From Escherichia phage CJ19: a stretch of 49,567 nt of DNA. Both the position numbers and the translations under genes were made by a program. Within the stretch, counting starts at the first letter, position 1. Each line of letters begins with the position of its first letter. The stretch lies in the sequence record MT176427.1, one strand, 5' to 3'. Positions 7,942 through 49,567 of the stretch are shown here, one piece after another. The notes below the pieces were generated by a model, which did not search any database, was not told the origin of the DNA, and worked only from the letters and a program-made list of their open reading frames with translations.

Positions 7942-7948
7942 TGTAAAN

Positions 7949-9133: not shown

Positions 9134-9170
9134 TATATATACCTTTATTTACTTCGTTTGATTTACGGTG

Positions 9171-34541: not shown

Positions 34542-34543
34542 GG

Positions 34544-34702: not shown

Positions 34703-34731
34703 TTTGCTTCCCTCTCGTTTGGTGTGAAATA

Positions 34732-34776
34732 ACTATAACAAAACCCGCCGGAGCGGGTTTAGCAATTAGTGCTATT
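34732..34776 (-). promoter_or_regulatory. early promoter cassette (ATAGCAC box + TGTTATAGT)
   Basis: Box 34757-34776; hairpin AACCCGC/GCGGGTT in spacer; 22-bp spacer. Confidence 0.5.
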
Positions 34777-35408: not shown

Positions 35409-35451
35409 TTTGATATTCCTGAGTAGTGGGCGCGATGTGCGCCCGTTATGG

Positions 35452-35997
35452 TTAGTTTGCTTTCTTGTCTACGCCGTGAGACTTAAGGCCGGAGTGCACG
35501 TTGTCGCCATAGTCACACACCTGATAGGTAGTGATGCCGAGGCTTCGGAAGTGCGCGATAACGCTAGGACTATCATCAAAGGCCGCAGTGATGCGGTGCA
35601 ATCCAATGTAGCGTAAAAATTCTTCCTTTATGATCGTGTCCTTGCGGTTATCATCAGCCTGGCGCATGACCAGAACGTTGTAATTAGCACCAGCATCATG
35701 CAGCCACTGCGTTGATTCCTCGACCACTGCGTCAGATCGACCAGTGAGAACGATAATGAAAGCACCGGAAGCGAACAGGCTATTCATTACGTCAATCGTT
35801 TCCTGGAATGGCTGATCGAACTTGCTCAATGAGTTAAATTCAAGCCATGACTCAGTGAGGTGCAAGTCATTTGTCGGTAGCTTGTGAAGGCGGTGCGAAC
35901 CGTCCGACAGAGTACCATCGAAATCAAATATGTAAACTTTCTTGTTTACTGCTTCCGTTTGAAGGTGATGCTTAATCATTGTGTAAAGCTGGTTCAT
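35452..35997 (-). CDS. HAD-superfamily phosphatase (putative 3-prime phosphatase)
   Basis: HAD motif I DFDGTL near N-terminus, further motifs VLTGRSD and FDDSPS; promoter cassette 36030-36075. Confidence 0.55.
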   Translation of the reverse strand: MNQLYTMIKHHLQTEAVNKKVYIFDFDGTLSDGSHRLHKLPTNDLHLTESWLEFNSLSKFDQPFQETIDVMNSLFASGAFIIVLTGRSDAVVEESTQWLHDAGANYNVLVMRQADDNRKDTIIKEEFLRYIGLHRITAAFDDSPSVIAHFRSLGITTYQVCDYGDNVHSGLKSHGVDKKAN

Positions 35998-36029
35998 TTT
36001 TAACTTCCTTTCGTGTGGTTGATGTGGGG

Positions 36030-36075
36030 ATTATACCAGTCAGGATGAATCCCCCTTTAACAAAACGTGCTATTT
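36030..36075 (-). promoter_or_regulatory. early promoter cassette (ATAGCAC box + TGGTATAAT)
   Basis: Box 36056-36075; 22-bp spacer; leader CATCAACCACACGAAAGGAAG before phosphatase ATG. Confidence 0.5.
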
Positions 36076-36876
36076 GATATAGAACTGAGCCACTACGCCA
36101 CCATCAGGATTTACTATTGCGTATGCGTCACCGAGCGTTGCATTGGCATTCATAACCTTACCAATTCTCTTTGCTTTCCATCGGTAATCGCCTTTTAAAT
36201 CAGAGATGAATGCATCTTGTGCGATATGGATAAGGCGAGGCTCGCAACCTGGCTCGCACTCATCAACTTCATAATCGTACTGGCAACCATTGATAAACGC
36301 ATTGCCGTTAACATGGTAGCAAACTGCCACCTTGCGATCGCGTGCAGATTCGCATTCACCCACCGCCCATACGTTACGATTGACATAACCGTAACCGCCG
36401 CTGCGTGGTTCCATTTTCGCGGTTGACATGGTAAGCGCCTTGCCTTCACCGAAATTGCTACCGAAAGTGAACTTGCCGTTCTTCGTCAATTCATCTGCGA
36501 CGCTGTAGGTGTCATTCTTGACGGTCTTACCTGGGCCAGTCGCAAGCTCATTCACGAACGCATCGACAGTGCTGTGACACGGATCGCCATTGTACTTAGG
36601 CAAATCCTTGAGTAATTGTTCACAGGCTTCGTGCACCAGCTTACCTACAGCTTCTTTGATTGCCTGCTCAACATGGTCAGCGATAATCGAATATGCAGAA
36701 ATTTGATGTTTTTGAGTCGATTCTAACGCCTTTAAACGCGCCTGTAACGACTCAATTTCTTGCTTATGCATATCGTAGGATACCCACCGACCATCGTCGC
36801 AGGCTTGCATTCTGACGCCGTGAATGTTAACGCTGGTTGCTACTGCTACAGGATTAAAACGGTTGATGCTGTTCAT
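36070..36876 (-). CDS. hypothetical Cys-rich protein (268 aa)
   Basis: ORF with C-terminal Cys cluster (CQYDYEVDECEPGCEP); promoter cassette 36918-36963. Confidence 0.4.
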   Translation of the reverse strand: MNSINRFNPVAVATSVNIHGVRMQACDDGRWVSYDMHKQEIESLQARLKALESTQKHQISAYSIIADHVEQAIKEAVGKLVHEACEQLLKDLPKYNGDPCHSTVDAFVNELATGPGKTVKNDTYSVADELTKNGKFTFGSNFGEGKALTMSTAKMEPRSGGYGYVNRNVWAVGECESARDRKVAVCYHVNGNAFINGCQYDYEVDECEPGCEPRLIHIAQDAFISDLKGDYRWKAKRIGKVMNANATLGDAYAIVNPDGGVVAQFYIK

Positions 36877-36917
36877 GTGTGATTCCTCAGTTGATTTGTG
36901 TTCACTTGACAGGAGAC

Positions 36918-36963
36918 ACTATATCTAATGTCTCCGAGCAAGTTTTAACAAAAAGTGCTATTC
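36918..36963 (-). promoter_or_regulatory. early promoter cassette (ATAGCAC box + TATAGT)
   Basis: Box 36943-36963; hairpin GGAGACA/TGTCTCC with -10 in loop. Confidence 0.5.
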
Positions 36964-37176
36964 AATGACTCCGGCGCTAATTGCCGTCTCAAGTGTGACG
37001 TACTGCTTAGCCGTCAGCGATGAGTTATAGGTAAAGATGCCAGCCTGGATGCCCTTTACCAACTGATCCTGCGTGATGCCTGAGATGTTAATAATCCCGT
37101 ATCCGCCACCAGTACGCAGGACGACACCTCCGACCGCGCAAAATTCAATGCCTTTACTGTTAGTGTAGACTTGCAT
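36958..37176 (-). CDS. hypothetical Gly-rich protein (72 aa)
   Basis: ORF in early operon. Confidence 0.3.
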   Translation of the reverse strand: MQVYTNSKGIEFCAVGGVVLRTGGGYGIINISGITQDQLVKGIQAGIFTYNSSLTAKQYVTLETAISAGVIE

Positions 37177-37178
37177 GA

Positions 37179-37358
37179 TTATTGCTCCTTCAACTTTTTG
37201 TAGGCGCCTTTAACCACTCCTAACGCAATGGCAATGGGCCAGATAGCGGCAACGATCACCATGTCGTACCAGTTGTTATCACTATTGCTAACGTCTTTTG
37301 CAATTGCGTAAACAGGAAGTGCGCCCAGGATGTAAAGCACGATGCATAAAATAATCAT
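37179..37358 (-). CDS. small membrane protein
   Basis: Two hydrophobic helices; start moved to internal Met (MIILCIV) overlapping upstream stop. Confidence 0.3.
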   Translation of the reverse strand: MIILCIVLYILGALPVYAIAKDVSNSDNNWYDMVIVAAIWPIAIALGVVKGAYKKLKEQ

Positions 37359-37718
37359 AAGTAACTCTTCCCTACAGTTTCGCCAACTTCTCGTGATGCC
37401 TTTAATTTGTTCCAGTAGTCGAACGGGCCGACTGGCTCCCATGAGTTAGGCTTGCCTGGATCGTTCCACCAACCAAGAACTGCTTCGCTACCGTAACATG
37501 AGTTCATTGGCTTTCCGCTACTGAAATAGCTTTTGAATACTCGATCAAGCTCGTCACCACCAACCTTGATTGAACTATTATTAAATTCAGTGCCATCAAA
37601 GAACCCCCCCCACAACGATCGGATATGATCCGGGATCTCGTGGGTTTGTCTCTTTCTCGTGGAGCTTGGTATAATCAAGGTCTGCGTAAATTGATGGGTT
37701 AAGTAAACGTACTTTCAT
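37355..37718 (-). CDS. hypothetical protein interrupted by frameshift in C8 homopolymer
   Basis: ATG at 37718 with RBS and promoter cassette 37762-37807 opens a frame that stops at about 37596; the ORF-track frame (37355-37678) continues from the poly-C run at 37604-37611; both frames encode Gly-Gly across the run. Confidence 0.35.
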
Positions 37719-37761
37719 TTGTGAATCCTCTGTTATTGGTTGTATCTGCTTCAATAAGGCC

Positions 37762-37807
37762 ACTATATCAAATGGCCTTGCGGAAGGTTTAACGATTAGT
37801 GCTATTT
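37762..37807 (-). promoter_or_regulatory. early promoter cassette (ATAGCAC box + TGATATAGT)
   Basis: Box 37788-37807; hairpin AAGGCCA/TGGCCTT with -10 in loop. Confidence 0.5.
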
Positions 37808-37896
37808 AACCACCACCAGGATAATCATCACCAGGAACAGAAGCACCCAGGATAACCCGAAAAGAAGCAATTGCAGCACGTCAACTAATTTGAACT

Positions 37897-38115
37897 TCAT
37901 AGCACTTCAACCTCATCCTCTGCAAATGGCCAGTCGCCCGGTGCCATTCCTTTTTTGCTGAGCGCCGGAAGGAAGTCAGCGTCAACCATGTAAAATGGTT
38001 CAAGCCCTTCTTCCTGGTATTTCCAGGCCATCGCTACCACTGGCAGCTTGCTTTTATCCACTCCGCTATATGGTGACTTGATAATGCGGATCTTAACCAT
38101 TTCTTCATTGTTCAT
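37897..38115 (-). CDS. hypothetical acidic protein
   Basis: ORF-track frame 37897-38157; start uncertain (Met15 or Met20). Confidence 0.3.
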   Translation of the reverse strand: MNNEEMVKIRIIKSPYSGVDKSKLPVVAMAWKYQEEGLEPFYMVDADFLPALSKKGMAPGDWPFAEDEVEVL

Positions 38116-38329
38116 TGTGGCGCTCCATGTAGTCAGCCATTTTGATAAGGTGTTCACCCATTGCGCGGACTGTTGTCGACTCCCTCATGGGGAACGCTCC
38201 TGATTCGTGTTCAATCACCATCTCGACGGTTACAACTCCCAGCGTCTTTCTCGTGTAAATGCAGCAAGAATCACCATCTGAATCGTTAAATATCTTGCTT
38301 TCTTTCTTAATTTCATAATCGTTAATCAT
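38105..38329 (-). CDS. hypothetical protein (74 aa), possible distant member of the small-paralog family
   Basis: ATGA overlap with upstream paralog; C-terminal helix VRAMGEHLIKMADYME loosely resembles family helix. Confidence 0.35.
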   Translation of the reverse strand: MINDYEIKKESKIFNDSDGDSCCIYTRKTLGVVTVEMVIEHESGAFPMRESTTVRAMGEHLIKMADYMERHNEQ

Positions 38330-38553
38330 ACAATACCCTTATCAGCTCTGTGTGCAGCTTCAATCAGATACGCAGCTAACTGGCGAGCCTGGTCTGGCGT
38401 GTACAGCATGTAACTACTTGGGTATGATTCTTCGTGAGGGTTGAAGTCAAGGCGCACCTTGAAAGTCACCTTGTCATTGCTATGAATCTTCACAGCCTCA
38501 ATTTCGGCCTGCTCGTTGTAGTCGTCTGCGATGCGTACGGCGGTTGTGCTCAT
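38326..38553 (-). CDS. small paralog family member P1 (75 aa)
   Basis: C-terminal motif YTPDQARQLAAYLIEAA shared with 39113-39334 and 39331-39537; promoter cassette 38593-38638. Confidence 0.5.
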   Translation of the reverse strand: MSTTAVRIADDYNEQAEIEAVKIHSNDKVTFKVRLDFNPHEESYPSSYMLYTPDQARQLAAYLIEAAHRADKGIV

Positions 38554-38592
38554 AAATTACCCCTTAGTTGATTGTTTCACTTCAATGAGTGC

Positions 38593-38638
38593 ACTATAGC
38601 AAATGCACTCACGGCAGTTTTAACAAAAAGTGCTATCG
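38593..38638 (-). promoter_or_regulatory. early promoter cassette (ATAGCAC box + TGCTATAGT)
   Basis: Box 38618-38638; hairpin TGAGTGCA/TGCACTCA with -10 in loop; drives paralog P1. Confidence 0.5.
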
Positions 38639-38923
38639 TTCATCTTCTCTGGAGCATCCCTTGCCGCAACCATGGCGACCAACTTCCACGATCCCGACAC
38701 CGCTTAAGCCGATGTATTCCTGACCAGTGTCCTTATCGGTGATGACGTATATCGCTCTGACGTTCTCATATGCCAGTTCATCCCTGAACTCCTGAATCTT
38801 CACAACCTGGACGCGATCGTTGACATTCACTTGCATCTTCTGCCGAGCCTCTGAATCTACACGGGTGCTTCCGAAATCACATCCAGCCAGTGCTAGGGCT
38901 GCAATTAAGATTAACTTTTTCAT
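38633..38923 (-). CDS. small lipoprotein (96 aa)
   Basis: Signal peptide with lipobox (LALAGC); C-terminal Cys pair. Confidence 0.55.
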   Translation of the reverse strand: MKKLILIAALALAGCDFGSTRVDSEARQKMQVNVNDRVQVVKIQEFRDELAYENVRAIYVITDKDTGQEYIGLSGVGIVEVGRHGCGKGCSREDER

Positions 38924-39120
38924 TCTACCACCTTCAATACTTTCTCTTTGCGATGCGGTGCGCCGGACTTATGCAGCCAGTAGCGAGCCTGGGATAACTG
39001 GCTGGTGTGCCCAACCGTAACCAACCAGAACAGGGCTACCCTTTTCTGGATTGCATACCACTTGACCGGATGACAGAAGGCCGTAGTCGTGTCAATCAAT
39101 GCGATCCTGAATTTACTCAT
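38920..39120 (-). CDS. hypothetical protein
   Basis: ORF-track frame 38920-39177; start moved to Met20 (MSKFRIA) just after upstream stop. Confidence 0.3.
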   Translation of the reverse strand: MSKFRIALIDTTTAFCHPVKWYAIQKRVALFWLVTVGHTSQLSQARYWLHKSGAPHRKEKVLKVVE

Positions 39121-39334
39121 CACCTTCTTCTTCCTCCACTTCCTCAGCCGCTTTGATGAGTGCCGCCGCCAGTTCACGAGCCTGCTCTGCTGTGTAGGTC
39201 ATGCCAGCGCCGTCTGCCTGCGAATCTGGCGCGAGGTCCAGGTGCACGCGCTTGCGCATCTTGCCAAATGGAACCTTGATTACTGAGATTTCCGTTTCCT
39301 GATTCCATGATGAATTGACTCGAATATCTCTCAT
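39113..39334 (-). CDS. small paralog family member P2 (73 aa)
   Basis: C-terminal motif YTAEQARELAAALIKAAEE plus poly-acidic tail; ATGA overlap with P3. Confidence 0.5.
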   Translation of the reverse strand: MRDIRVNSSWNQETEISVIKVPFGKMRKRVHLDLAPDSQADGAGMTYTAEQARELAAALIKAAEEVEEEEGDE

Positions 39335-39537
39335 TGCTTTTCAGCCTCTTCTGCTGCCAGGATAAGCGCCGCCGCCAGCTTGCGTGCTTGCTCTGGTGTG
39401 TAGTGCATCATGGTAACGCCCTGATCGTCAGTATCGAAGTCAATGGAGACTACGGCCTTGACTACTCCAGTCCGATTGAGCAGAACGCTAACCTCGGCAT
39501 CATCACCAACCACATCCTCAATGCGTAAAATTTCCAT
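39331..39537 (-). CDS. small paralog family member P3 (68 aa)
   Basis: C-terminal motif YTPEQARKLAAALILAAEEAE. Confidence 0.5.
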   Translation of the reverse strand: MEILRIEDVVGDDAEVSVLLNRTGVVKAVVSIDFDTDDQGVTMMHYTPEQARKLAAALILAAEEAEKQ

Positions 39538-39539
39538 AA

Positions 39540-39754
39540 TTATTTCCCCTCCGCTTCGTCTGCTGCAAGGATTAATGCCGCCGCTAACTTGCGGGCCGCG
39601 TCAGGTGAGTATTGCATCAGCGTTTGACAGTCGGAGTAACCGTCAGGATCGAATTCAAGGTTGACAACATGCCCGCGAACGGTTCCCATCGTGACGCTGA
39701 CCCCTCTGCTTGTTCAAAGTGAACATCGTCAATGCGTACAGTTTACATAATCAT
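39540..39754 (-). pseudogene. decayed fourth copy of the small paralog family (P4)
   Basis: Manual translation: ATG ATT ATG TAA (stop at codon 4), then TVRIDDVHFEQAEG in one frame and VSVTMGTVRGHVVNLEFDPDGYSDCQTLMQYSPDAARKLAAALILAADEAEGK in another; intact promoter cassette 39779-39824 and RBS. Confidence 0.45.
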
Positions 39755-39778
39755 TTCCTCTTCGTTGTTGATAGGGTA

Positions 39779-39824
39779 ATCATAGCTGACTACCCGATTT
39801 GTTGTTTAGCAATTCGTGCTATTC
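39779..39824 (-). promoter_or_regulatory. early promoter cassette (ATAGCAC box + TATGAT)
   Basis: Box 39805-39824; 22-bp spacer; drives decayed P4 and P3-P2 operon. Confidence 0.45.
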
Positions 39825-40373
39825 ACCGTTCAGGAGAGTTTTCGCTTTCCGGTAGAACTGGATGGCCTTCTCCACCTCATCGGCATCATAGCCATGGATG
39901 GTTGGCGGCTTAATCGGCTCAACGTAGTGAGAGCGTGGCGCATCAGATCGGTACTGACTGCACCAGCTGTACACGTCTCGCTCATGCATTCCCGCCAGGG
40001 CTGGATGCACAAATATCTTGTCGCCAATCCGGCAGATGATTCCGGCGTCCTGGAGTGACGGCAGGATGTTATTGCTCAGGTCATTGTATATGCCATCACG
40101 TCCGACGAATGGTATGACCTCTCTGATTTGTCTGTATAGCTGGCTCACACAAACCATTCCGGTATTGCCGCATAAGCGCTTAATCTTATGCACCACGACG
40201 CCGTATTTGTAACTCAGCTTGACGCACGACATCTCTTCGGAGCTTGACCAATATTTGAAGGTGTCGCGATAGCCATTTGCACTGATCGCAACCTTAAGCG
40301 GTGACATGCCGCTTTCACTGGCTTCATTGAATATCTGCTCGCCTGTCATTCTTTCGCTCCCGAAGTAACTCAT
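39819..40373 (-). CDS. hypothetical protein sharing N- and C-terminal modules with the 527-aa ATPase
   Basis: SPLKVAISANGYR and ICRIGDKIFVHPALAG match PPLRVAINANGYR and TCLIGDKIYINPRLLG of 44541-46124. Confidence 0.5.
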   Translation of the reverse strand: MSYFGSERMTGEQIFNEASESGMSPLKVAISANGYRDTFKYWSSSEEMSCVKLSYKYGVVVHKIKRLCGNTGMVCVSQLYRQIREVIPFVGRDGIYNDLSNNILPSLQDAGIICRIGDKIFVHPALAGMHERDVYSWCSQYRSDAPRSHYVEPIKPPTIHGYDADEVEKAIQFYRKAKTLLNGE

Positions 40374-40894
40374 TATTTGGTTTCCTTAATCATTTCATGG
40401 TAGCGAGCCAGGGCAATGAGCGCACCTTCTTTCTGCTCACCTTGCAGGTCGATAACGTTCGGTGTGATCTTGAGCAGCCGAGACTTGAACCTTTCAACGA
40501 TTACCGCCTCCTTTTCCTCGTCACCCTTGCGTCGTGTTCCGGCCTGGATAGCACCATCAACCAGGGTGATGTAAGCACATCGAACATCGACATCATCCCC
40601 GAAGTCGCCATCCTTGATTGACAGCTTGGCCCGAACGTTCGCCGCCTGAATCTCTGGCATCCTGGCAACCGTGTTAGAGACGTACGAGGCTTTCAGCTTT
40701 GCAACGCTGTACTTACCGCCAGCCTCAAGGTCGTCGGCATTGATTCTGCCCATATCATCAGCCGTGAGTCCGTACATCTGGCGAGCTATCAGGTGGATTG
40801 GAACGTGGTAACTTCGGTTCTCGGACTTGAGCGCTTGCTCCGCCATGTAGCGGACGACATCTCCCAGGCTTACGGATTGATTATGATTTGACAT
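40373..40894 (-). CDS. hypothetical protein (173 aa)
   Basis: First leftward gene after the 40895-41612 control region. Confidence 0.4.
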   Translation of the reverse strand: MSNHNQSVSLGDVVRYMAEQALKSENRSYHVPIHLIARQMYGLTADDMGRINADDLEAGGKYSVAKLKASYVSNTVARMPEIQAANVRAKLSIKDGDFGDDVDVRCAYITLVDGAIQAGTRRKGDEEKEAVIVERFKSRLLKITPNVIDLQGEQKEGALIALARYHEMIKETK

Positions 40895-41031
40895 AGATAT
40901 TACTCCTGATTGGTGGTCTTCGTTAAGATGGGTGCAATATTACCAGCATGGTTACATGTTATCAAGTGTTATTGATGCAAATATTCGACTTAGTTACGTT
41001 TTACGACCTCTTGAGCCAGATATAGCTCAAT

Positions 41032-41280
41032 GTAACCACTATGTACAGCTTGTACATCAAATTTCGCGGAGGATTGCCCCATATATGCCTTTTTATTCCT
41101 ACAATGTCATCCCATTCTTACAAGTGTCAGAATATATCATAGAAAGCTATCGCAATATCCAATACCTCTTATCTACATTATCTACATATATATATAATAA
41201 TAATAATAATATAGATAAAAGGTTGTTATATAAGGATATTTTATTGTAACCATAGCGTAACTAGGCGTTATAGGCGTACC
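41032..41280. repeat. AT-rich control-region element, copy B
   Basis: Contains ATAGCTCAATGTAA (41032-41045), (AT)5(AAT)5 at 41186-41210, TAAAAGGTTGTTATA...GATATTTTATTGTAAC and GCGTAA/GGCGTT/GGCGTA repeats. Confidence 0.7.
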
Positions 41281-41527
41281 TGATTCCACGCCGGATGGAT
41301 TTGTCTACAGAGTATAACATGCATAACGCGTATGCGGTGGAAACGTGTGGCGGAAAAATCCTACCAGGCGATCATGGGATCAGATCTCACCCCATCATTC
41401 CCCCCACCAATGAATCATCGCTCAATTCGCAACAATCAAAAACATCATTGCATCGGAAGCAATATTGCTGTATGTGCAATAGTCATGATAATCATTGCAA
41501 TATCTGCAACAATCCATAAATCCAACG

Positions 41528-41574
41528 AATAGCACTTTTTGCTAATGACCGATCAGGTGTGATTCGCTATTATT
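41528..41574 (+). promoter_or_regulatory. promoter cassette (ATAGCAC box + TATTAT)
   Basis: Box 41528-41546; -10 at 41569-41574; leader CCATCGAAACGAG. Confidence 0.5.
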
Positions 41575-41612
41575 ACTCCATCGAAACGAGTGAAGAGAAC
41601 TGGAGAAAATAA

Positions 41613-41816
41613 ATGAGCACTGTAAAAATGTATTGCTACATCGTGATGTCTGAGCCGTGTGATCCGAATTACGATACGACAGTTCACTGCGTATGCCTCA
41701 GTGAACAGATGGCTAAGCAGGTTTGCGAGAAGATGAACATGCGCGATGGTTTCAACAACTATGAATACTACGAAGCGGAGTTGCAGAAATGGAGTTACGC
41801 CAAGAATGTGCACTGA
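41613..41816 (+). CDS. hypothetical Cys-containing small protein (67 aa)
   Basis: Promoter cassette 41528-41574 and leader CCATCGAAACGAG upstream. Confidence 0.4.
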   Translation: MSTVKMYCYIVMSEPCDPNYDTTVHCVCLSEQMAKQVCEKMNMRDGFNNYEYYEAELQKWSYAKNVH

Positions 41817-42015
41817 TTGGCAGCGGTAACGAGTATCTAATCCGTTGCGACAACTAAAGTCCTGAAGTGTTCCGCCTGGTGGGTGAGATGCCAGTACAGG
41901 CAACCGCTATGAATGCTAAGACTATTGAGTGGGCGCTACTTTACGGTGGTGTGGCACGGGTAATCGGCCAGGCCAAAATCACTGTTGATATTTCACTAAT
42001 TTAAGGAATTGACAA

Positions 42016-42447
42016 ATGAGCATTGTTCACGGTGTTATCTATAAGGGAAAAACTGACGGAAAGGTAAGGTTTGTTACGCCATCCGGCAGGGTTTATATGT
42101 GGGCCTACGGAGCCTGGCGCTTCCAGCACCAATTCAATGAGTCGATCTACAATAGCTTGCGATCCTGTATCGGGAATGGCGTTAGCAATATATACCTGGC
42201 ATCAAGTCGCAAGGTGTTCATGGAAAAGCGTGTAGCGCTCGATCCGATTGACTACTTTGCCGTTGAGTTCATGGGGCATCGGTTTAGTAAAAGACGATTG
42301 TTCCGCAAAGGTGAGATTGCAATGGAACAACAAAATGCGGCTGCTGCTTTCGGCAAAGCGGCACGTCAACGCCTGACTGGTTATCATCCATGCTTTCCGC
42401 CAACGCCGTTTTATGCTCACTGTAAACGACCACCAAAAAATCGTTAA
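42016..42447 (+). CDS. hypothetical protein (143 aa)
   Basis: ORF with RBS; no motif recognised. Confidence 0.4.
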   Translation: MSIVHGVIYKGKTDGKVRFVTPSGRVYMWAYGAWRFQHQFNESIYNSLRSCIGNGVSNIYLASSRKVFMEKRVALDPIDYFAVEFMGHRFSKRRLFRKGEIAMEQQNAAAAFGKAARQRLTGYHPCFPPTPFYAHCKRPPKNR

Positions 42448-42491
42448 ATAGCACGAATTGCTAAACTAAGCCTCACGGATTGAGGCATAAT
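42447..42491 (+). promoter_or_regulatory. promoter cassette (ATAGCAC box + CATAAT)
   Basis: Box 42447-42465; hairpin GCCTCA/TGAGGC; leader TCATCGAAACGAAG. Confidence 0.5.
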
Positions 42492-42529
42492 CATTTCATC
42501 GAAACGAAGTACACAAAGAGGAAGTAAAA

Positions 42530-42754
42530 ATGTCAGTTAAAGCTCAGAACGTAGTAGCACACATCGAAGCAAAAGGCCGTGCGATCGTCAAGCTGGACCG
42601 CGCCGCAGGCGTAAGCCAAATCACCATCACGCGCCGTGAGTTCGACCGCTACGTTGTTGGCACACATCCAGGCTCAATCATCCGTAGCCTTACCCGTACT
42701 GAGATGATCAACCTGTTAAATGATAACTCACTTTACATCAATTCCTGGAGCTAA
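42530..42754 (+). CDS. hypothetical protein (74 aa)
   Basis: Promoter cassette 42447-42491 and leader TCATCGAAACGAAG upstream. Confidence 0.4.
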   Translation: MSVKAQNVVAHIEAKGRAIVKLDRAAGVSQITITRREFDRYVVGTHPGSIIRSLTRTEMINLLNDNSLYINSWS

Positions 42755-42756
42755 CA

Positions 42757-42972
42757 GTGCATCAAGATAATTTCTGGAGCCGCCACCGCGCGGCACTTGA
42801 AGCCGGACTCAATGAAGAGTGGGCGCTCAAGGTTGCTTACGGATGCATCGAACTCGATGACGTATTGGGCGTTATGGATATGGATCTGGAAAGCGAAAGC
42901 AACCAGTCAGTAGACGGAATCGGGGATGACTTCGACTACCGCTTAAAATTTGATGACGGAATCCCGTTCTAA
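42757..42972 (+). CDS. small acidic protein ending in SSB-like tail DDGIPF
   Basis: 71-aa ORF, acidic C-terminal third, last residues KFDDGIPF versus phage SSB QFDDDIPF; too short for an OB fold. Confidence 0.45.
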   Translation: MHQDNFWSRHRAALEAGLNEEWALKVAYGCIELDDVLGVMDMDLESESNQSVDGIGDDFDYRLKFDDGIPF

Positions 42973-42981
42973 GGTGAGATC

Positions 42982-43221
42982 ATGAAGGTAAAGTGCACTA
43001 ACGTAATCGCCAGCACAGACAAGAAGGTTTTGACACCATTCGTAAAAGGCTCTGTATACGACGCTGAGCCGCTAATCATTAACGGTAAGACAATCCCGAA
43101 CGAATGGGTTATTAATGGCGCTGAGCGACCGCACAAGCACGATTCTGGCTGGATTGCTATCGCAGGCTGGAAGGTCGGAATGTTTATCCTTGGTATCGCA
43201 ACGTTTGATGAGGTGAAATAA
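42982..43221 (+). CDS. hypothetical protein (79 aa)
   Basis: ORF with RBS AGGTGAGATC; hydrophobic C-terminal segment. Confidence 0.35.
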   Translation: MKVKCTNVIASTDKKVLTPFVKGSVYDAEPLIINGKTIPNEWVINGAERPHKHDSGWIAIAGWKVGMFILGIATFDEVK

Positions 43222-43379
43222 TGCTCAAGCCATCCGATTTGAACTACTACGACAACGACACGATCGCGAAGCTCTCAGGTCAAGGATGGTATCCATGGAG
43301 CACCATCGCTCAGGTTGAAGACTTGCAAAGCAGTTACGAAATCACACAGAAAGCAATTGAGAAGGCTAAGAAGAAATGA
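43221..43379 (+). CDS. small hypothetical protein (52 aa)
   Basis: Manually translated ORF (MLKPSDLNYYDNDTIAKLSGQGWYPW...) with TAATG and ATGA overlaps to neighbours; below ORF-track cutoff. Confidence 0.3.
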   Translation: MLKPSDLNYYDNDTIAKLSGQGWYPWSTIAQVEDLQSSYEITQKAIEKAKKK

Positions 43380-44044
43380 AAAAGGTAATTTACTGCTTGT
43401 TCGACGGTTCTGGTATCGCTGGCCTCCCATGGGCGGAAGATGGTCACACCGTCTACTGCTTCAATGCGGACTCCGGCAATCATGGCGAATACCATATCAA
43501 GATGAAGCATGAGAACATCCACTACGTCAACATGTGGATTGACAAGGATTTCATCACTAAGTGTGAATTGCTCGGCCTGCCTCCGGCGCAAATGGTTATC
43601 GGCTTTCCTGATTGCACGCTGTTCTCTCAGTCTGGATCACAGCATGAGCGCGGGGAAGATGAGCTGGCATACGCCCTGGCTAACGCGAAGCTCGTCGAAG
43701 AAGTCGGCAATCACTTCCAGGCACCATGGATGGTTGAGAATCCGGTAGGCAAGCTGTCAAGCCTGTGGCGTAAGCCTGACTTCTATTTCAATCCTTGCGA
43801 TTATGGCGGTTACGTTGATCACGATGATGTTTATCACCCAAGAATGCCCCCTCGTAATGCTTACAATAAAAAGACTTGCATTTGGTGTGGCAATGGATTT
43901 GTTGAACCTATTAAAAAGCCAGTTGAGAGCATTGGATTCTTCTGGGCCTGGAAATACTGCGGCGGAAAGTCTGCAAAGACAAAGGTACTCCGCTCATTAA
44001 CACCGGAAGGCTTTGCTCGCGCACTATATGAAAGCAACAAATAG
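43376..44044 (+). CDS. DNA methyltransferase-like protein (C5-cytosine-type motif order)
   Basis: Motif I-like FDGSG, motif IV-like GFPDC with Cys, motif VI-like ENPVG in the right order and spacing; short (222 aa). Confidence 0.4.
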   Translation: MKKVIYCLFDGSGIAGLPWAEDGHTVYCFNADSGNHGEYHIKMKHENIHYVNMWIDKDFITKCELLGLPPAQMVIGFPDCTLFSQSGSQHERGEDELAYALANAKLVEEVGNHFQAPWMVENPVGKLSSLWRKPDFYFNPCDYGGYVDHDDVYHPRMPPRNAYNKKTCIWCGNGFVEPIKKPVESIGFFWAWKYCGGKSAKTKVLRSLTPEGFARALYESNK

Positions 44045-44084
44045 CACTAATTGCTAAAGCCCTTCGGGGCTTTTCCTGTATATT
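44040..44084 (+). promoter_or_regulatory. promoter cassette (ATAGCAC box + TGTATATT)
   Basis: Box 44040-44058; hairpin AGCCC/GGGCT; leader TCATCGAAACGAAACAC. Confidence 0.5.
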
Positions 44085-44120
44085 CATCTCATCGAAACGA
44101 AACACGCAAAGGAAATCAAA

Positions 44121-44471
44121 ATGACAGCAACAACTAAAAACTTCATTAGCAACGAAAACGTATTATACAAAGCTCGTGTTAAAGACGGTGTAGAGCAAAT
44201 CAAGAAAGATGGTAAATGGGTTAACCTGGAAGAACGCGGTAAGTACATCAAGACAAAAACTCTTTACTGCACGAAGGTTAATCACAGGTCAGCAGTTAAA
44301 AAAGACTTCAAAGAAGGTAAGCGCTATCAGGTAAATATTCATGCTGGCCTTGGCCAATCTGCCGGTTACATTTACGATGAGGATGGTAATGCTTGGCAGC
44401 TTTACCGAAACGAAGAGGTTGGCTTCATGAGCCTCTGCGGTACGTACAAGTGGCAGGCGGCGTACAAATAA
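44121..44471 (+). CDS. hypothetical Lys-rich protein (116 aa)
   Basis: Promoter cassette 44040-44084 and leader TCATCGAAACGAAACACGCAAAGGAAA upstream. Confidence 0.4.
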   Translation: MTATTKNFISNENVLYKARVKDGVEQIKKDGKWVNLEERGKYIKTKTLYCTKVNHRSAVKKDFKEGKRYQVNIHAGLGQSAGYIYDEDGNAWQLYRNEEVGFMSLCGTYKWQAAYK

Positions 44472-44540
44472 GTAGCATTTTCTGGCAAGCGGATTTACCA
44501 TAGGTGCGTTAACATTAGCGCACCACTAAGGAGTTTTTTA

Positions 44541-46124
44541 ATGTTTGATTTCAACGAAGATAAATTGTCAATCGATCAGGTCATGGCTGTAGCCGCTGCC
44601 GATAACCTGCCACCTTTGCGCGTTGCCATCAATGCGAACGGATACAGGCAGAGCCAATCATTCTGGAAAGCCCCAACAGAAATTGACTCAGGCGGTGACA
44701 AATATCCGGTTATCTCACTTGGTAACGATTATGATGTCGTTGGTAAGCTGTCAAGCAATGCCGCTCGTTCAGTTCAATTCCCCGAGTCGTCCGCTTACAT
44801 GCATTTCCTCGGATGCATATCAGCCGCCATGCTGGGCCGATTTACGGTTGAGTATCACGGAACACAACAGCCGACCGCTCTTTACGTCGTAACCAGTCAG
44901 CCACCATCGACAGGTAAATCAGCCATCAACTCACTTTCGCTGGCCCCGATGATCGCAGAGACTGAGCGACTCAACGAGATCCGAAAGCGCGACCGCAAGA
45001 AGATTATGGCTAAACTATCTGCTCTATCCAAGGAGATGAAGCAGGAAAAATCACCGTCCGACATGGCGGCACTGTTTGAGGAAAAAGAAGAACTGGAAGA
45101 AAAACTGGAACGCCTTTGTGACATCGTATTCCCCGTATCCGACACCACGCCGGAAGGTCTGGCGCGAATCAACAACCGCCAGGGTAACTTCTCTGTGATC
45201 TCGGATGAAGCGACGAGCGTAAACTCACTGTTAGGCATGACCTATGGTGATGGCTCAAAGAAAACGAACAGCGAACTTGTGCTTAAGGCATGGGATGCTG
45301 GTAACGTATCTATCGCCCGTGCGAACGCAGACAACAACATGAGCTTTATTGCGATGGGCTGCATATCTGTAATTGCGCAGGATGAAACAATCAACGCGAT
45401 CATGAATGCTGGCGCGCGTGGTATCGGTGTATCCGAGCGATTCTTGCTTGTGCGTGAGAAGTCATTCCTTGGCGAGCGTGTATTCGTTGACGAAAAAGGC
45501 GAATCAACATACGAGCCGATTGATGGCGGACTCAAGGCGGACTACTTCCGTCTGGTCCATGAGATCATGAGCGAACACGAAGTCAACCTGACAGTGAGCA
45601 CGTCGGCGATGAAATATCTCAACCGTGCGCGTCAGGATATGGAACCTCACCTTGCGGACGGCGGGAAGTATTCACACACAATGCTTCGCGGCGCGCTGGG
45701 TAAGTTCGATAAGCAGGCTATCAGGATCGCGGCTGTTCTTCACACTGTGCGTAACTGGTTTAATCCCAATGGCGGGAGTCCGAAGAAGTCCAGAGAGATT
45801 GAGCTTGACACAATGCAGGAAGCGGTAATTATGTTCCAGGAGCTGAGTAAGACTTATCTGTCATCTGCAAACGCTGCTGGTCATGCTGGCGACCATGCTG
45901 AGATGAATAAGCTGATCGATATTCTGATCAAGCAAGGTAAGAACGGGAAAGGCGTTGTAGGTGTCAGATCCCTATATGAAGCGGCTCGTAAGGTTAAGCC
46001 ATTCGAGGGCCAGGCTGGCGTAATGACTCGAATCAAAGACCATCTGATCCCTATGCTTGATGAGAAAAACTATACGTGCCTGATTGGTGATAAAATTTAC
46101 ATTAATCCGCGACTGCTGGGGTAA
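44541..46124 (+). CDS. P-loop NTPase (putative replication/recombination ATPase)
   Basis: 527-aa ORF with P-loop-like SQPPSTGKSA; N- and C-terminal modules shared with 39819-40373. Confidence 0.5.
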   Translation: MFDFNEDKLSIDQVMAVAAADNLPPLRVAINANGYRQSQSFWKAPTEIDSGGDKYPVISLGNDYDVVGKLSSNAARSVQFPESSAYMHFLGCISAAMLGRFTVEYHGTQQPTALYVVTSQPPSTGKSAINSLSLAPMIAETERLNEIRKRDRKKIMAKLSALSKEMKQEKSPSDMAALFEEKEELEEKLERLCDIVFPVSDTTPEGLARINNRQGNFSVISDEATSVNSLLGMTYGDGSKKTNSELVLKAWDAGNVSIARANADNNMSFIAMGCISVIAQDETINAIMNAGARGIGVSERFLLVREKSFLGERVFVDEKGESTYEPIDGGLKADYFRLVHEIMSEHEVNLTVSTSAMKYLNRARQDMEPHLADGGKYSHTMLRGALGKFDKQAIRIAAVLHTVRNWFNPNGGSPKKSREIELDTMQEAVIMFQELSKTYLSSANAAGHAGDHAEMNKLIDILIKQGKNGKGVVGVRSLYEAARKVKPFEGQAGVMTRIKDHLIPMLDEKNYTCLIGDKIYINPRLLG

Positions 46125-46127
46125 ATT

Positions 46128-46502
46128 ATGTTTCTTCTGGATCTGTACCGTTTTTGCGAAGGCTATGAAAAATTCAACCGTCAGCACATGGCGGTATTCA
46201 TATACAAGCATAGGGAGTGCGAGCGACTGGCGAAGGCTGCCGGAGTTACGCCTCGCTACTTCGCATCATCAGCATCAAAGGAGTTCATCGCAAGATGCAT
46301 GGGCGAAGGATACCTTGACGGCGTGAACAACTGGTACTGGTCCAAAGGGGCGCAAAAAAGGCCATTTGAATTTCATTTCAGGTGCTATTGCGGCGAGAAC
46401 GATCGCTATACATGGGAGATGATGAACATAGAGAAGATGAGCGATGAAGAGTTATTCGGAAAGCCAGGTCGTAATCGACGCGATAATCAGATGCAGTTCT
46501 GA
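46128..46502 (+). CDS. hypothetical Cys/Trp-rich protein (124 aa)
   Basis: ORF 4 bp after ATPase stop. Confidence 0.35.
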   Translation: MFLLDLYRFCEGYEKFNRQHMAVFIYKHRECERLAKAAGVTPRYFASSASKEFIARCMGEGYLDGVNNWYWSKGAQKRPFEFHFRCYCGENDRYTWEMMNIEKMSDEELFGKPGRNRRDNQMQF

Positions 46503-46640
46503 GAATGGCATTAGTGAGGACGGGATTAACCAAGCCCTTATCTCAATGCTTAACTCATCCATGCGCGCCGGACGACGTGATGAGCATACGTTGTGCAATA
46601 ATGAAGGTGAATTGTTGCTACTGGTGCAAAGATTTGGATA

Positions 46641-46676
46641 AAAAAAGGGAGCCTTTCGGCTCCTTTTATTTTTTGC
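46641..46676. terminator. bidirectional terminator between rightward early genes and lysis cassette
   Basis: Hairpin GGAGCC-TTTC-GGCTCC flanked by A7 and T-rich run. Confidence 0.6.
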
Positions 46677-47079
46677 GTCGTTCCAGCCAAATTGAAAGAG
46701 CAATCATCAGGATGCCAATGAACAGGAATACCAGTCCGGCAATCAGATTACCTTTCGAGTCATCGTTCCTGATCTCAATCTTATCAGCGATGATGGTGTC
46801 AGCCTTGATGCTTGAGGTGCTGACAGACTTCCCGTTTGACGTATCAACCTTTCCTACCTTTGAATCTTTGATAGTAGTGTCGTTGTCGTTTGACTTATCC
46901 ACCTTTCCGGTAACGCCTACCGTTTGCTTCACGTTCTCAGCCCCAGCCTGCGCACTGATTTCTGGCTTGCTGCCAATTAAACCAGTCAGCGCAGATGTTG
47001 CCGAACAACCTGATAACACGAACAAGGCCCACACTACGAAGCCGATAACCAAAGCACGCTGTAAATTTAGACAACTCAT
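46666..47079 (-). CDS. unimolecular spanin (u-spanin)
   Basis: N-terminal lipoprotein signal (LSGC) plus C-terminal transmembrane helix ([17 protein letters not shown]); last gene of lysis cassette. Confidence 0.6.
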
Positions 47080-47573
47080 TTCTGTAGCTCCTTAACACAA
47101 TATTGATACTCGAACGCCCGTCGATTCTTAAGCCCCTTTGACCGTTCTTTCTTTCCAGTCTTCGGATTCTTAAAGTAAGTCCAGGCCCATAGCTGATTGC
47201 AAGCCTCAAGTAGTTTACCCTGGTTAGTAAGTCTCAGCATAGTGGAATTACGGTAAGCACCAGTGCCAACGTTGAAAGTGAAGCTGTACATTGCCGCACG
47301 GAAGTTATCCGGAACGTCAACCTTAATCCGCTTATCAACCTCACGCTTGGCGATGTCGATATGCTTATATAGCAATGCGTCGCATTCTCTTTTGGTGTAG
47401 GTCTTGCCGAGAATAACGTCAGGTCCAGTGATGCCAGCGCACACTGTCCAAACTCCGGCAATATCCTTATATGGCTTGTACTCAACGCCTTCAATCTTCT
47501 CAACAAGTGAAGGCGTTAGCGATAAAGCTACACCAAAAGAAATACTAGCAAGCGTCCTGTTTACGCTCATCAT
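47076..47573 (-). CDS. endolysin, lysozyme-like with N-terminal SAR (signal-anchor-release) domain
   Basis: Glu-x8-Asp-x5-Thr-like lysozyme catalytic region ([23 protein letters not shown]) after weakly hydrophobic N-terminus. Confidence 0.7.
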
Positions 47574-47800
47574 TATTTACCCCTTAGTTTAAGAGCCGTC
47601 CGCAAGTCTCCTGAGTCAAGCGCCTGACGAATGGCTTTGCTATCCTGATATTTCCAGTAAGCACCCCAAATGCCAAAACAAACGAACAGGATGAACGTCG
47701 CCCCTGCGATCGCCAGCTGGCCCGTTGCAGCGCCAGCGAAAGATGCCCCGCCAGTACCAGCCGTTACAGTGTTTAATACCTCTTTCATGTGATCCACCAT
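47573..47800 (-). CDS. holin / pinholin
   Basis: 75-aa ORF with Gly/Ala-rich transmembrane segments and charged C-terminus, 1-bp overlap with endolysin. Confidence 0.55.
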
Positions 47801-47865
47801 TTATGTAATTGTCAATATCTCAGTTAGTAAAAAACATAATACATTATCACGGTACAGAAAAGAAT

Positions 47866-47895
47866 CACAAAAAAGGGGAGCCTAAAGGCTCCCCG
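47866..47895 (-). terminator. intrinsic terminator upstream of lysis cassette
   Basis: On minus strand hairpin GGGGAGCC-TTTA-GGCTCCCC followed by TTTTTTGTG. Confidence 0.6.
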
Positions 47896-47920
47896 TTCGT
47901 AACGTTATGTTTTTAATGCG

Positions 47921-48094
47921 CTAGTCAGCAATAATAAATTCAACCAGCGCACCATCAATCGGCGCAAAAATCCACGTCATATCGTCGCCGTAAATCTTGT
48001 AGTTACCGTCACCTTGATACTCGGCGCTGTACGGATTGTTAACAGTGAAAGGCAGGGTTTTAGATGTGTTCTTAACGCAAAATAATTTAACCAT
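47921..48094 (-). CDS. small hypothetical protein (57 aa)
   Basis: Manually translated ORF (MVKLFCVKNTSKTLPFTVNNPYSAEYQGDGNYKIYGDD...) downstream of promoter cassette 48121-48166 with RBS GAGGA; followed by terminator 47866-47895. Confidence 0.3.
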   Translation of the reverse strand: MVKLFCVKNTSKTLPFTVNNPYSAEYQGDGNYKIYGDDMTWIFAPIDGALVEFIIAD

Positions 48095-48120
48095 GATTGA
48101 ATCCTCTGTGAGTGAGACAT

Positions 48121-48166
48121 GAATATAGCGCCTTCCGGAGCTATAGTGTTAGGCAATTCGTGCTAT
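48121..48166 (-). promoter_or_regulatory. promoter cassette (ATAGCAC box variant + TATATT)
   Basis: Box 48148-48166 (TTGCCTAA variant); precedes small ORF 47921-48094. Confidence 0.4.
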
Positions 48167-49308
48167 CAGATGTCGCTCATTTCAGGACGGTAAACAAAGC
48201 GACCGACTTCGCCGAACTCCTTGGAGTAGACAATTACCGCCGCCTGGCGATATGAGCGCCAACCGCCGCGCGCTGCATAGGCATCTTTCGCGCCAAGCTG
48301 ACCGTGAATCTCATCAATACCCAGCGTGCCTTCTGTGATCGTCTGGTGATGCCAGTGTCCTGAGTGAGTGTAGATATATTTGCTCGTACCGAACTCTTCG
48401 CGGAAGTCAGTCGCCATTGCCGCCAGTCGAGTATCAGCTTTCTTCATGGTGTGACCATGAGTGTATCCAAGCAATGTTTTGCCCCACTTTGTACGGTGAA
48501 GAATCATAGGAGACGTATCAACCGTTACGCGCGCCTCATCTTCAAAGTATGCCGCCATTGCAGCGCGGAGCCAAATCATACCCGCCTGATCATGGTTCCC
48601 TTCAATGATCTGGATTTCGACCTCTTCGTGCTTATCCAGCATTAGCGCCACCGCGCGGCGTACGGAACGGATTGCAACGTGAACTATCTTGGCGTATCGA
48701 CTATCCTGATCCAGTACGTGACCGCTTGCAGGCGTTACTGCGTCCAGGCCATCAGAGTGAAGGAAGTCACCGCCGATTAACAGGACTGCTTTCTTAGCCT
48801 TCGGTGATACGCCGACAGAATAATCAAAGAAGTTTTTCAGCACTTTCTCTGAGATGTCGGTGCTGTAGTTCTCACCGCATTCATGCTTGTGGGCCATCGC
48901 GCCAATATGAAGATCGAATACCGGATAGAGCGCCAGGAGATTTTCATCGTAGTGAGGTTCGCCAAGGATAGGCTGAGCCGCCGCGCGTGGTAGTTCATCA
49001 CAGAATGCTTCAATTGCAGCATCCATCATGGCGGCTAACTTTTCCTTGTCCTGATCGGTCTTAACCCAGCGCACAACCTCAGAACCGTCAGCGCGAATCA
49101 TAGTTGATGTACCTTTAACCTGAAAACCCTCTGGTACGTGTACTCTTACGTGTTTATTTCCGTGGAACTCACCGCGCTTTGCCAGGCGGCTTGAGCGCTG
49201 CTCAACAGTTCTAATGTTCATCCCGTATTCCTGGGCGATTTGGCGCAGCGTTTTACCAGCTTCGCGTTCAGCAATGAATTGTTCGTCAGTGATTTTTTGA
49301 ATAGCCAT
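48166..49308 (-). CDS. metallophosphoesterase (calcineurin-like) with N-terminal HTH
   Basis: N-terminal HTH-like TLRQIAQEYGMNIRTV; phosphoesterase motifs FDLHIG, GDFLHSD, GNHD, GHTM, GHWHH. Confidence 0.6.
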   Translation of the reverse strand: MAIQKITDEQFIAEREAGKTLRQIAQEYGMNIRTVEQRSSRLAKRGEFHGNKHVRVHVPEGFQVKGTSTMIRADGSEVVRWVKTDQDKEKLAAMMDAAIEAFCDELPRAAAQPILGEPHYDENLLALYPVFDLHIGAMAHKHECGENYSTDISEKVLKNFFDYSVGVSPKAKKAVLLIGGDFLHSDGLDAVTPASGHVLDQDSRYAKIVHVAIRSVRRAVALMLDKHEEVEIQIIEGNHDQAGMIWLRAAMAAYFEDEARVTVDTSPMILHRTKWGKTLLGYTHGHTMKKADTRLAAMATDFREEFGTSKYIYTHSGHWHHQTITEGTLGIDEIHGQLGAKDAYAARGGWRSYRQAAVIVYSKEFGEVGRFVYRPEMSDI

Positions 49309-49567
49309 TTTTGTAAACCCTTATCGTGTTAGTAAGTAGATGATAATAAAACCAATTAGCGGCGGTAATAATACAGGAATTAAGCAGCGCATCAAATCTT
49401 TTTCAACCATGTTGTTAAAGTATCTGGCTCAATCGCTTCACCTGCACTCTCTGATTCGCTGGGAACCATCATACCAGTTGAAGGGCTAAAATACATCAGG
49501 CGATATCCGCCACCGCGCGAACATGGCACATCTTCGAAGTCAGAAGGCAACCAGTCAGCGAAAGGGA

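Follow-up and report, generated by a model that had tools for sequence, protein, structure and literature searches.

Phage T4 needs the SbcCD-like gp46/47 for the breakdown of host DNA, and a note in the T4 sequence record agrees with this role. In phage T5, host DNA digestion requires the predicted metallophosphatase A1, which is also sufficient for it; the essential partner of A1, A2, is predicted to bind DNA (bioRxiv 10.64898/2026.04.02.716235). Phages T1 and TLS also degrade the host chromosome and reuse its nucleotides, the responsible genes having "thus far" not been identified (PMC11447400). Here we analyze the 49,567-nucleotide sequence of Escherichia phage CJ19 (MT176427.1), called the window below, and in it a gene on the minus strand (48166..49308) whose 380-residue product joins an N-terminal helix-turn-helix (HTH) to a calcineurin-like metallophosphoesterase. 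We give even chances to the reading that this product is a phage enzyme of DNA and nucleotide metabolism, a DNA-tethered nuclease for the breakdown or trimming of DNA that is a candidate for host degradation.

A helix-turn-helix domain fused to a metallophosphoesterase core

The gene is an ATG-started open reading frame (ORF) of 380 codons, with an AAGGG Shine-Dalgarno-like sequence ahead of its start codon. An earlier note on this DNA had called the same ORF and had read its product as a fusion of an HTH with a metallophosphoesterase; the ORF stands as called, and the fusion is borne out by motifs, homologues and the predicted fold. Residues 4-378 match positions 2-389 of the 390-position PHROG 704 profile with E=5e-152. 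The protein is 99.2% identical to a protein of Escherichia phage BUCT-XGG-1 that is labelled merely hypothetical in GenBank, and the DNA of the gene region is 96% identical to that phage. The source genome is that of a T1-like siphovirus of the Drexlerviridae, Nouzillyvirus-like. T1 ST16 (gp16), which carries the RefSeq label 'DNA repair exonuclease', is 65% identical; it shares the family, the length, the architecture and the position upstream of genes for an SH3-like protein, a pinholin, a signal-arrest-release (SAR) endolysin and a spanin, and it shows no substantive difference from the window protein. Judged by profile and identity, the gene is thus an orthologue of ST16 and belongs to an already annotated and widespread phage family; its finding here is a re-discovery and not a new family.

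The spread of this family is large. Relatives were found by tblastn in 2,048 phage records, among them Escherichia, Klebsiella, Salmonella, Vibrio, Campylobacter, Rhodobacter and Flavobacterium phages, and an exhaustive profile search covering 1.84 billion cluster representatives (50%-identity clusters) returned 6,631 clusters at E<=1e-3 and 2,875 at E<=1e-30. PHROG 704 is also matched by the T1, Jerseyvirus, Vibrio, Sulfitobacter, Campylobacter and Flavobacterium members. The names in the databases vary: 'winged helix-turn-helix domain-containing protein', 'metallophosphoesterase', 'HTH-type regulator/nuclease SbcD', 'serine/threonine phosphatase' and 'phosphoesterase' all occur, and TLS gp66 is a 'proof-reading exonuclease'. 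Two further families cover parts of the same protein, PHROG 20703 its N-terminal half (residues 1-196) and PHROG 20762 its C-terminal part (261-377), and several phage records hold fragments of 100-260 residues (BFVD fragments). The gene therefore appears to be split or mis-called in some genomes, by frameshifts or homing-endonuclease insertions. The window contains nine single N (2078, 4155, 6912, 7672, 7948, 18073, 20660, 21167 and 29726); the one at 4155 puts an X into a 700-residue helicase (2283-4385), and the gene studied here is free of them.

The catalytic core, an alpha/beta unit with the double beta-sheet sandwich of the superfamily in the model described below, spans residues 121-373 (48190..48948, minus strand, as are all elements of the gene given below) and carries all five metal-binding motifs of the superfamily, DxH / GD / GNH(D/E) / H / GHxH. 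Motif I is DLHIG (D132, H134, G136; 48901..48915), motif II is GDFLHSD (G180, D181, H184, D186; 48751..48771) with the GDxxH form of Mre11 and PdeM, motif III is GNHD (G237-D240; 48589..48600), motif IV is HGH (H284-G-H286; 48451..48459) and motif V is GHWHH, which starts at G317 and includes H318 and H320 (48346..48360). The earlier note had listed DxH, a GDxxxD-like motif, GNHD and GHxH, and all of these are present, except that motif II reads GDxxHxD and not 'GDxxxD'. Two alignments were used, one of 36 sequences with 25-94% identity and one of 145 representatives of 50% clusters. In all 145 of the latter D132, H134, G180, D181, N238, H239, H284 and H320 are invariant, and H184 and H318 are kept in 141. 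This conservation is far beyond chance. A family-specific loop, TPASGHVLDQDSR (48697..48735), has T192, L199, D202 and R204 near-invariant in the alignment; it probably sits beside the active site in the model, where the confidence at the loop is low.

Pfam Metallophos and Metallophos_2 gave no match to the 380-residue protein even at E<=10. Among the 36 homologues, 10 matched Metallophos and 7 matched Metallophos_2, with weak best E-values of 1e-3 and 1e-4. Because Pfam misses the protein itself, the domain calls rest on homologues, motifs and predicted fold, and by these the PHROG 704 family is a divergent branch of the calcineurin-like metallophosphoesterases. An AlphaFold2 model was built on the 36-sequence alignment (predicted local distance difference test, pLDDT, 79.6; predicted template modeling score, pTM, 0.68). 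A Foldseek search of the full model against the PDB returned 102 matches at E<=1e-3, all of them metallophosphoesterases with probability 1.0; they include Vps29, Methanocaldococcus jannaschii Mre11, Rv0805, purple acid phosphatase, GpdQ, PolD DP1 and LpxH at 10-14% identity. The fold of the predicted model is certainly that of a metallophosphoesterase, with no solved structure close to it.

The N-terminal domain (residues 1-46; 49171..49308) is modeled as three helices, 8-16, 21-27 (or 28) and 32-44, with pLDDT 87-95, the HTH proper lying at residues 20-44 (49177-49251). The segment that the earlier note had quoted as HTH-like, residues 20-38, falls on the helix 21-27, the turn and the helix 32-44, so that it is indeed predicted as an HTH by both the model and the homologue matches. 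Hallmark residues are common among the 145 relatives, with A25 in 118 and G29 in 104. For the 380-residue protein the Pfam HTH matches are sub-threshold, the best being HTH_23 at residues 13-43 (E=0.022); among the 36 sequences the homologues match HTH_8 (3.7e-8), HTH_30 (7.3e-7), Sigma70_r4_2 (4.5e-6) and HTH_24 (5.9e-5), and the 145-sequence profile finds the LuxR-type regulator GerE in the PDB (E=0.007). Residues 1-115 folded alone gave the same three helices, with an HTH pLDDT of about 93-95. As predicted, the domain resembles the HTH of LuxR/GerE, sigma-70 region 4 and Fis type and would bind DNA. An assignment of the HTH subtype by folding residues 1-115 and searching the PDB was dropped, its matches being non-significant.

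The extension is a constant part of the family. At least 115 residues stand ahead of motif I in all 145 representatives, among the top 150 representatives nearly every one has 370-420 residues and aligns over its full length, and an HTH-like N-terminus is also found in the divergent members from Vibrio K172 and a Sulfitobacter phage. The 317-residue version of the Campylobacter Fletchervirus phages is the sole one without the HTH extension. Since the extension is kept across the 145 relatives and the divergent members, the fusion is real, ancient and maintained. Between the HTH and the core lies a linker module (residues 60-118; 48955..49131) seen in the model and the alignment, made up of a beta-hairpin (64-83), a long helix (85-104) and a Pro-rich connector. 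G75 and W81 of the hairpin are near-invariant among the 145 relatives, and the module gave no match to a known domain.

Comparison with described phosphoesterases

Beyond the family, the sequence links suggest a weak but one-sided lean toward nucleases. When the profile of the 36 sequences was compared with the PDB at E<=10, the sole phosphoesterases found were the PdeM-type 'Nuclease MPE' of Pseudomonas (6NVO/6NVP, E=0.07), Thermotoga maritima SbcD and Mre11. The 145-sequence profile found SbcD/Mre11 at a non-significant E=0.076-0.38 and the 'Nuclease MPE' at E=0.45; the best SbcD match, that of T. maritima (E=0.076, non-significant), holds motifs I and II in register. The sole phosphoesterase match in NCBIfam is PdeM (TIGR04123; E=0.0013), with 18.2 bits against a cut-off of 150 bits. 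Neither profile found a PPP, cyclic-nucleotide (cNMP) phosphodiesterase or LpxH sequence in the PDB at E<=10.

Mre11 and SbcD share with the window protein the fold and the DxHxG, GDxxH, GNHD and GHxH motifs, and M. jannaschii Mre11 gave the best query-normalised TM-score in Foldseek (0.41, with a root-mean-square deviation of 5.0 Å). In contrast with them, the window protein has no C-terminal capping domain, its core ending at residue 373 of 380, and it carries an HTH at its N terminus. The annotations of BUCT-XGG-1 and T1, the closest annotated relatives, list no Rad50/SbcC gene, and none stands beside the gene in the contexts examined. PdeM, with the 'Nuclease MPE' of its type, is a ligase-associated Mn2+ DNA endonuclease, small and working by itself with no partner ATPase. 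Its GDFLHa and GNHD segments are nearly the same as those of the window protein, and some phage members of PHROG 704 are also ligase-adjacent; it differs in that it has neither the HTH nor the hairpin-helix module, and the short motif segments alone align. Because hhalign shows no specific relationship to T4 gp47 or T5 A1, no Rad50/SbcC gene is annotated and the model has no capping domain, the protein is not filed as Mre11/SbcD or PdeM. As far as sequence can place it, the PHROG 704 family stands apart as a branch specific to phages, with an active-site signature like that of the nuclease branch. The resemblance to T5 A1/A2 is one of functional analogy only: there too a DNA-digesting phage phosphoesterase goes with a DNA-binding module, which in the window protein would be fused in one chain. 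A1 differs in its length (556 residues), in being encoded by a pre-early gene and in its restriction to the Demerecviridae. The candidate homology between A2 and the N-terminal domain was rejected at an hhalign probability of 0.9%.

In lambdoid phages a phosphatase gene lies just upstream of the late/lysis region. The lambda Ser/Thr phosphatase and the other PPP enzymes belong to the same superfamily and have the same metal-binding scaffold as the window protein, whereas they carry GDxVDRG and GNHE motifs and have no DNA-binding domain. These enzymes, together with the class III cNMP phosphodiesterases (Rv0805, GpdQ) and LpxH, raise the possibility of a substrate other than DNA. The protein might dephosphorylate other proteins, or it might act as a (cyclic/oligo)nucleotide phosphodiesterase and, for example, destroy signaling nucleotides of the host, with the HTH serving regulation, localization or protein contacts. 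Rv0805, GpdQ and LpxH match the model as well as Mre11 does, so that the fold alone leaves the substrate unfixed, and some of the database names point to a phosphatase or phosphoesterase. Since the nuclease links are statistically weak, such a substrate keeps a share of the probability; we regard it as unlikely. The test for a PPP-type enzyme failed, as motif II does not have the GDxVDRG form, and no PPP, cNMP phosphodiesterase or LpxH sequence came up from either family profile at E<=10. The idea also leaves the conserved DNA-binding domain and the DNA-enzyme neighbors unexplained, and the protein has no match to a PADLOC defense family, a result on which the notion of a defense or anti-defense relation was dropped as well. 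The earlier note had offered a DNA-tethered phosphatase or nuclease and had considered a clustering with housekeeping protein phosphatases. The tethered enzyme is plausible, with motifs and neighbors leaning to the nuclease and the phosphatase half less favored, and the protein does not cluster with the housekeeping phosphatases.

Gene neighborhoods and the proposed function

The gene neighborhoods in other phages are the most informative new evidence. Erwinia phage phiEa100 (Autographiviridae) encodes an orthologue with 39% identity over 98% coverage, which stands in a contiguous block of six genes (locus L095, 4491-9200) in the order exonuclease (PHROG 107), endonuclease VII, HTH-phosphoesterase, HAD_PNKP 3'-phosphatase, deoxynucleoside monophosphate (dNMP) kinase and ATP-dependent DNA ligase. 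Three of these genes are common to phiEa100 and the window, at 39-48% identity. In the window the PNKP-type HAD 3'-phosphatase (35452-35997, minus strand; Pfam HAD_PNKP E=3.8e-19) is 48% identical to the phiEa100 copy and the dNMP kinase (PHROG 139; 34776-35408, minus strand) 39% identical, and both are unlinked to the HTH-phosphoesterase. The phosphatase and the kinase directly follow the HTH-phosphoesterase in 27 of 80 related viral contigs, mostly after a gap of 29-90 nt, and lie within 1.6 kb of it in two contigs of a 44%-identity clade. Many Drexlerviridae thus have the pair together with the HTH-phosphoesterase, as phiEa100 does. The same phosphatase/kinase adjacency is found in the KanT1 paper (PMC13164509). 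On these grounds the 3'-phosphatase and the dNMP kinase are candidate functional partners of the HTH-phosphoesterase. The 'polynucleotide kinase' of T1-like phages consists of the HAD_PNKP 3'-phosphatase domain alone and has no kinase domain. The idea that the HTH-phosphoesterase supplies a missing 3'-phosphatase or 2',3'-cyclic phosphodiesterase to a kinase-only Pnk was rejected, as the phage 'Pnk' is itself the HAD_PNKP phosphatase and the P-loop protein beside it is the dNMP kinase.

Other contexts vary. In Campylobacter phage F358 (Fletchervirus; locus L011, 4998-5951) the HTH-less 317-residue version follows a DNA ligase, with a Holliday-junction resolvase nearby. HNH genes adjoin the HTH-phosphoesterase in T1, Jerseyvirus and Vibrio phages, in few of the 80 loci, and are sporadic homing-type insertions (PMC13164509). 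A packaging nuclease, an idea prompted by these HNH genes, was dropped because they are sporadic insertions and the gene is not beside the terminase.

While the ORF, its domains, the intact metal site, the family with its wide spread and the gene neighborhoods are all shown by the sequences, the DNA substrate, the tethering by the HTH and a tie to the degradation of host DNA and the salvage of nucleotides are what we infer. The protein would be a metal-dependent phosphodiesterase that works alone, a member of the calcineurin-like superfamily with a nuclease-branch-like signature. The HTH, possibly together with the hairpin-helix module, would bind duplex DNA with little or no sequence specificity, so that the catalytic core, tethered in this way, would meet DNA ends or nicks at a higher local concentration and would cleave phosphodiester bonds as an exonuclease and/or a single-strand endonuclease. 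The built-in HTH may thus stand in for the Rad50/SbcC ATPase that Mre11/SbcD need. In the proposed set of three genes, the PNKP-type 3'-phosphatase would unblock 3'-phosphate ends, the HTH-phosphoesterase would release 5'-dNMPs and the dNMP kinase would recycle them. Such an enzyme would be a candidate for the degradation of the host chromosome by T1-like phages. That it is in fact the host-chromosome-degrading nuclease of these phages is the bolder claim, and one that we consider more probably wrong than right by a good measure.

The main alternative within the nuclease reading is a role in break repair or recombination. Here the enzyme would trim phage DNA at hairpins or at ends that are damaged or blocked, before the 3'-phosphatase and ligase reseal it, supporting recombination-dependent replication or repairing the damage done by host nucleases, and it would have no part in the breakdown of host DNA. 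The ligase next to the gene in phiEa100 and the Campylobacter phages fits this role, as do the endonuclease VII or Holliday-junction resolvase nearby and the GDFLH and GNHD signatures like those of PdeM, which is ligase-associated by definition; in the KanT1 paper the gene closes the replication module (PMC13164509). Against it, T1-like phages, that of the window included, encode no ligase of their own, the dNMP kinase partner suits nucleotide salvage better, and the PdeM score is far under its cut-off (18 vs 150 bits). We therefore hold the repair role to be improbable, if worth keeping in view.

Several points weigh against the tethered nuclease that we propose. All of its nuclease links are below significance (E=0.07-0.45 against the PDB), and in Foldseek Vps29, Rv0805, purple acid phosphatase, GpdQ and LpxH rank level with Mre11. 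Specific homology to T4 gp47 or T5 A1 was tried and rejected, with hhalign probabilities of 2.4% and 3.6%, and the two belong to other PHROG families (100 and 1745). The isolated N-terminal domain retrieved HTH and winged-HTH regulators alone in Foldseek, none of them significant (best E=0.16). The label 'DNA repair exonuclease' is a propagated annotation, and the literature searched yielded no functional, biochemical or genetic study of the PHROG 704 family; it likewise yielded no mapping of T1 host-degradation mutants. The gene closes the late operon, next to the lysis genes, in prophages of alphaproteobacteria and in Vibrio and Sulfitobacter phages, a position that says little on DNA metabolism and is odd for a destroyer of host DNA in temperate phages. 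Finally, host DNA could also be degraded by other nucleases of the window phage, which has a RecE-like exonuclease as well as HNH and VRR-NUC proteins.

The repeated box and the genome position

The earlier note had also put the protein forward as a candidate for recognizing a palindromic promoter box, ATAGCAC. This heptamer occurs 19 times in the window against 6.1 expected, a number that none of 100 shuffles reached. Fifteen of them have the longer form ATAGCAC-N3-T(T)G(C/T)TAA(A), with a TATAnT hexamer about 22 nt further on; they stand at 554-560, 1868-1874, 4459-4465, 10682-10688, 25387 and within 34140-44047 (15 in all). In T1 there are 18, of which one comes straight after ST16. The box is the published 21-nt directional repeat aaATAGCACnnnTTGnTAAAA of TLS, T1, Rtp and Rogue1, for which roles as a stoperator, an enhancer-binding site or an UP element have been suggested and a function has not been established (PMC11447400). 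Because the distance to TATAnT, constant at about 22 nt, is too long, TTGnTA is no normal -35 element. In many copies a variable inverted repeat of 6-7 bp brackets the -10-like hexamer (GGAGACA..TATAGT GTCTCC at 36961), and in others the spacer holds a terminator-like hairpin with a T-run; we did not see the 22-nt spacing or the bracketing inverted repeats described in PMC11447400.

If the HTH recognized the ATAGCAC...TTGnTAAA box, the protein would be a sequence-specific regulator or a box-directed nuclease. The strong over-representation of the box and its lack of an established function leave room for this idea, and the center of the box falls some 42 nt ahead of the start that the -10-like hexamer predicts, a classic position for an activator or operator. 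Among the 80 related loci, the box is present in every examined locus with an orthologue of at least 61% identity and in none with 59% or less, and R33, E36 and R38 of the recognition helix are constant among the box-bearing phages. The co-occurrence, however, is fully confounded by phylogeny, because the box-bearing phages are the Drexlerviridae, and the co-variation of box and HTH over the 80 loci was given up as a discriminator since it tracks the phylogeny and does not tell the hypotheses apart. Helix positions 37, 39 and 40, of which Q37 and S40 are canonical base-contact positions, vary while the box stays identical. The box is directional, and only about half of its copies are even roughly palindromic (PMC11447400); the approximate palindrome with TTGCTAA is found in 7 of the 15 window copies. 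The boxes are located in the small-gene and replication arms and not among the structural genes, and are presumed to mark early units, which would have to fire before the HTH-phosphoesterase, itself encoded there, is made. Many phage lineages whose examined loci have no box also carry the family. A better candidate for binding the box is a Cro-like HTH protein of 157 residues (4478-4951, plus strand; P22_Cro E=1e-4), encoded at the divergent control region and transcribed away from the helicase gene; it corresponds to the 'transcriptional regulator' ST23 of T1. Recognition of the box by the HTH is not borne out, and we rate it as very unlikely. An equally slim chance goes to the version in which the HTH steers the nuclease core to the 15-21 or so aaATAGCACnnnTTGnTAAAA copies of each genome and the protein is a repeat-directed regulator and nuclease. 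Were that version true, the protein could be, for example, a 'stoperator'-type shut-off factor for the box-driven units, or could tell phage from host DNA during the degradation of the chromosome.

As for its place in the genome, the gene had been described as the first of a leftward early block next to the lysis cassette. It does adjoin the lysis cassette, but the block does not start with it; the impression arose because the right end of the window cuts the gene upstream. Relative to the BUCT-XGG-1 map the window is circularly permuted, 44030-49567 corresponding to BUCT-XGG-1 1729-7273 and 25-2259 to 7350-9575, and its ends cut an 83-codon gene directly upstream (49392-49567 and 1-25). Joining the end of the window to its start gives a stop codon, and about 50 nt of BUCT-XGG-1 are absent at the junction. 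From the cut gene and the absent nucleotides it follows that the window is a permuted and slightly trimmed linearization. In the relatives, about ten genes on the same strand (helicase, HNH, VRR-NUC, Dam and small ORFs) stand ahead of the HTH-phosphoesterase. The 83-nt gap upstream of the gene contains a weak sigma-70-like consensus match, TTGATG-16-TATTAT (49368..49395, minus strand), which is possibly the predicted promoter of the gene itself; the nearest upstream box-type element on its strand is the copy at 554-560, across the window junction.

Downstream, a copy of the repeat (48122..48166, minus strand) consists of ATAGCAC at 48160-48166, TTGCCT at 48151-48156 and TATATT at 48122-48127. 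It begins at the last base of the stop codon of the gene, T1 having a like arrangement at 41956, and by its sequence it is a promoter-like element of the next transcription unit that, as far as shown, has no part in what the protein does. The neighbor downstream encodes a DUF7244 (SH3-clan) protein of 57 residues (47921..48094, minus strand; Pfam E=4e-30). It is followed by a strong predicted intrinsic terminator with an 8-bp GC stem and T6 (47875-47894, minus strand) and, beyond the terminator, by the holin, endolysin and spanin genes (46666-47800, minus strand). The KanT1 paper treats the 'DNA repair exonuclease' as a conserved anchor upstream of the Drexlerviridae lysis module (PMC13164509). 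Because the terminator separates it from the holin, the DUF7244 gene may lie outside the lysis operon proposed there. Further on, the 527-residue protein at 44541-46124 (plus strand), a 'DNA helicase' in the relatives, matches DUF3987 alone (E=7e-39), a match typical of primase-associated helicase-like proteins of mobile elements.

The HTH-phosphoesterases are among the most widespread phage proteins without an assigned activity. They are carried by more than 2,000 sequenced phages, including T1-like, Jersey-like, Erwinia, Vibrio, Campylobacter and roseobacter phages, and by prophages. If the protein is a nuclease for host DNA, it would answer the question left by the TLS paper, which cites T1 studies of 1981 (PMC11447400), and would explain the recurrent set of three genes for a nuclease, a 3'-phosphatase and a dNMP kinase. 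It would also add a Rad50-independent, HTH-tethered nuclease design to the Mre11-like branch, and would offer a handle for the engineering of T1-like phages, as T1 mutants defective in host degradation transduce better (Roberts and Drexler 1981, cited in PMC11447400). The main value of the finding is a concrete candidate for the host-DNA degradation and nucleotide-salvage function of the T1-like phages.

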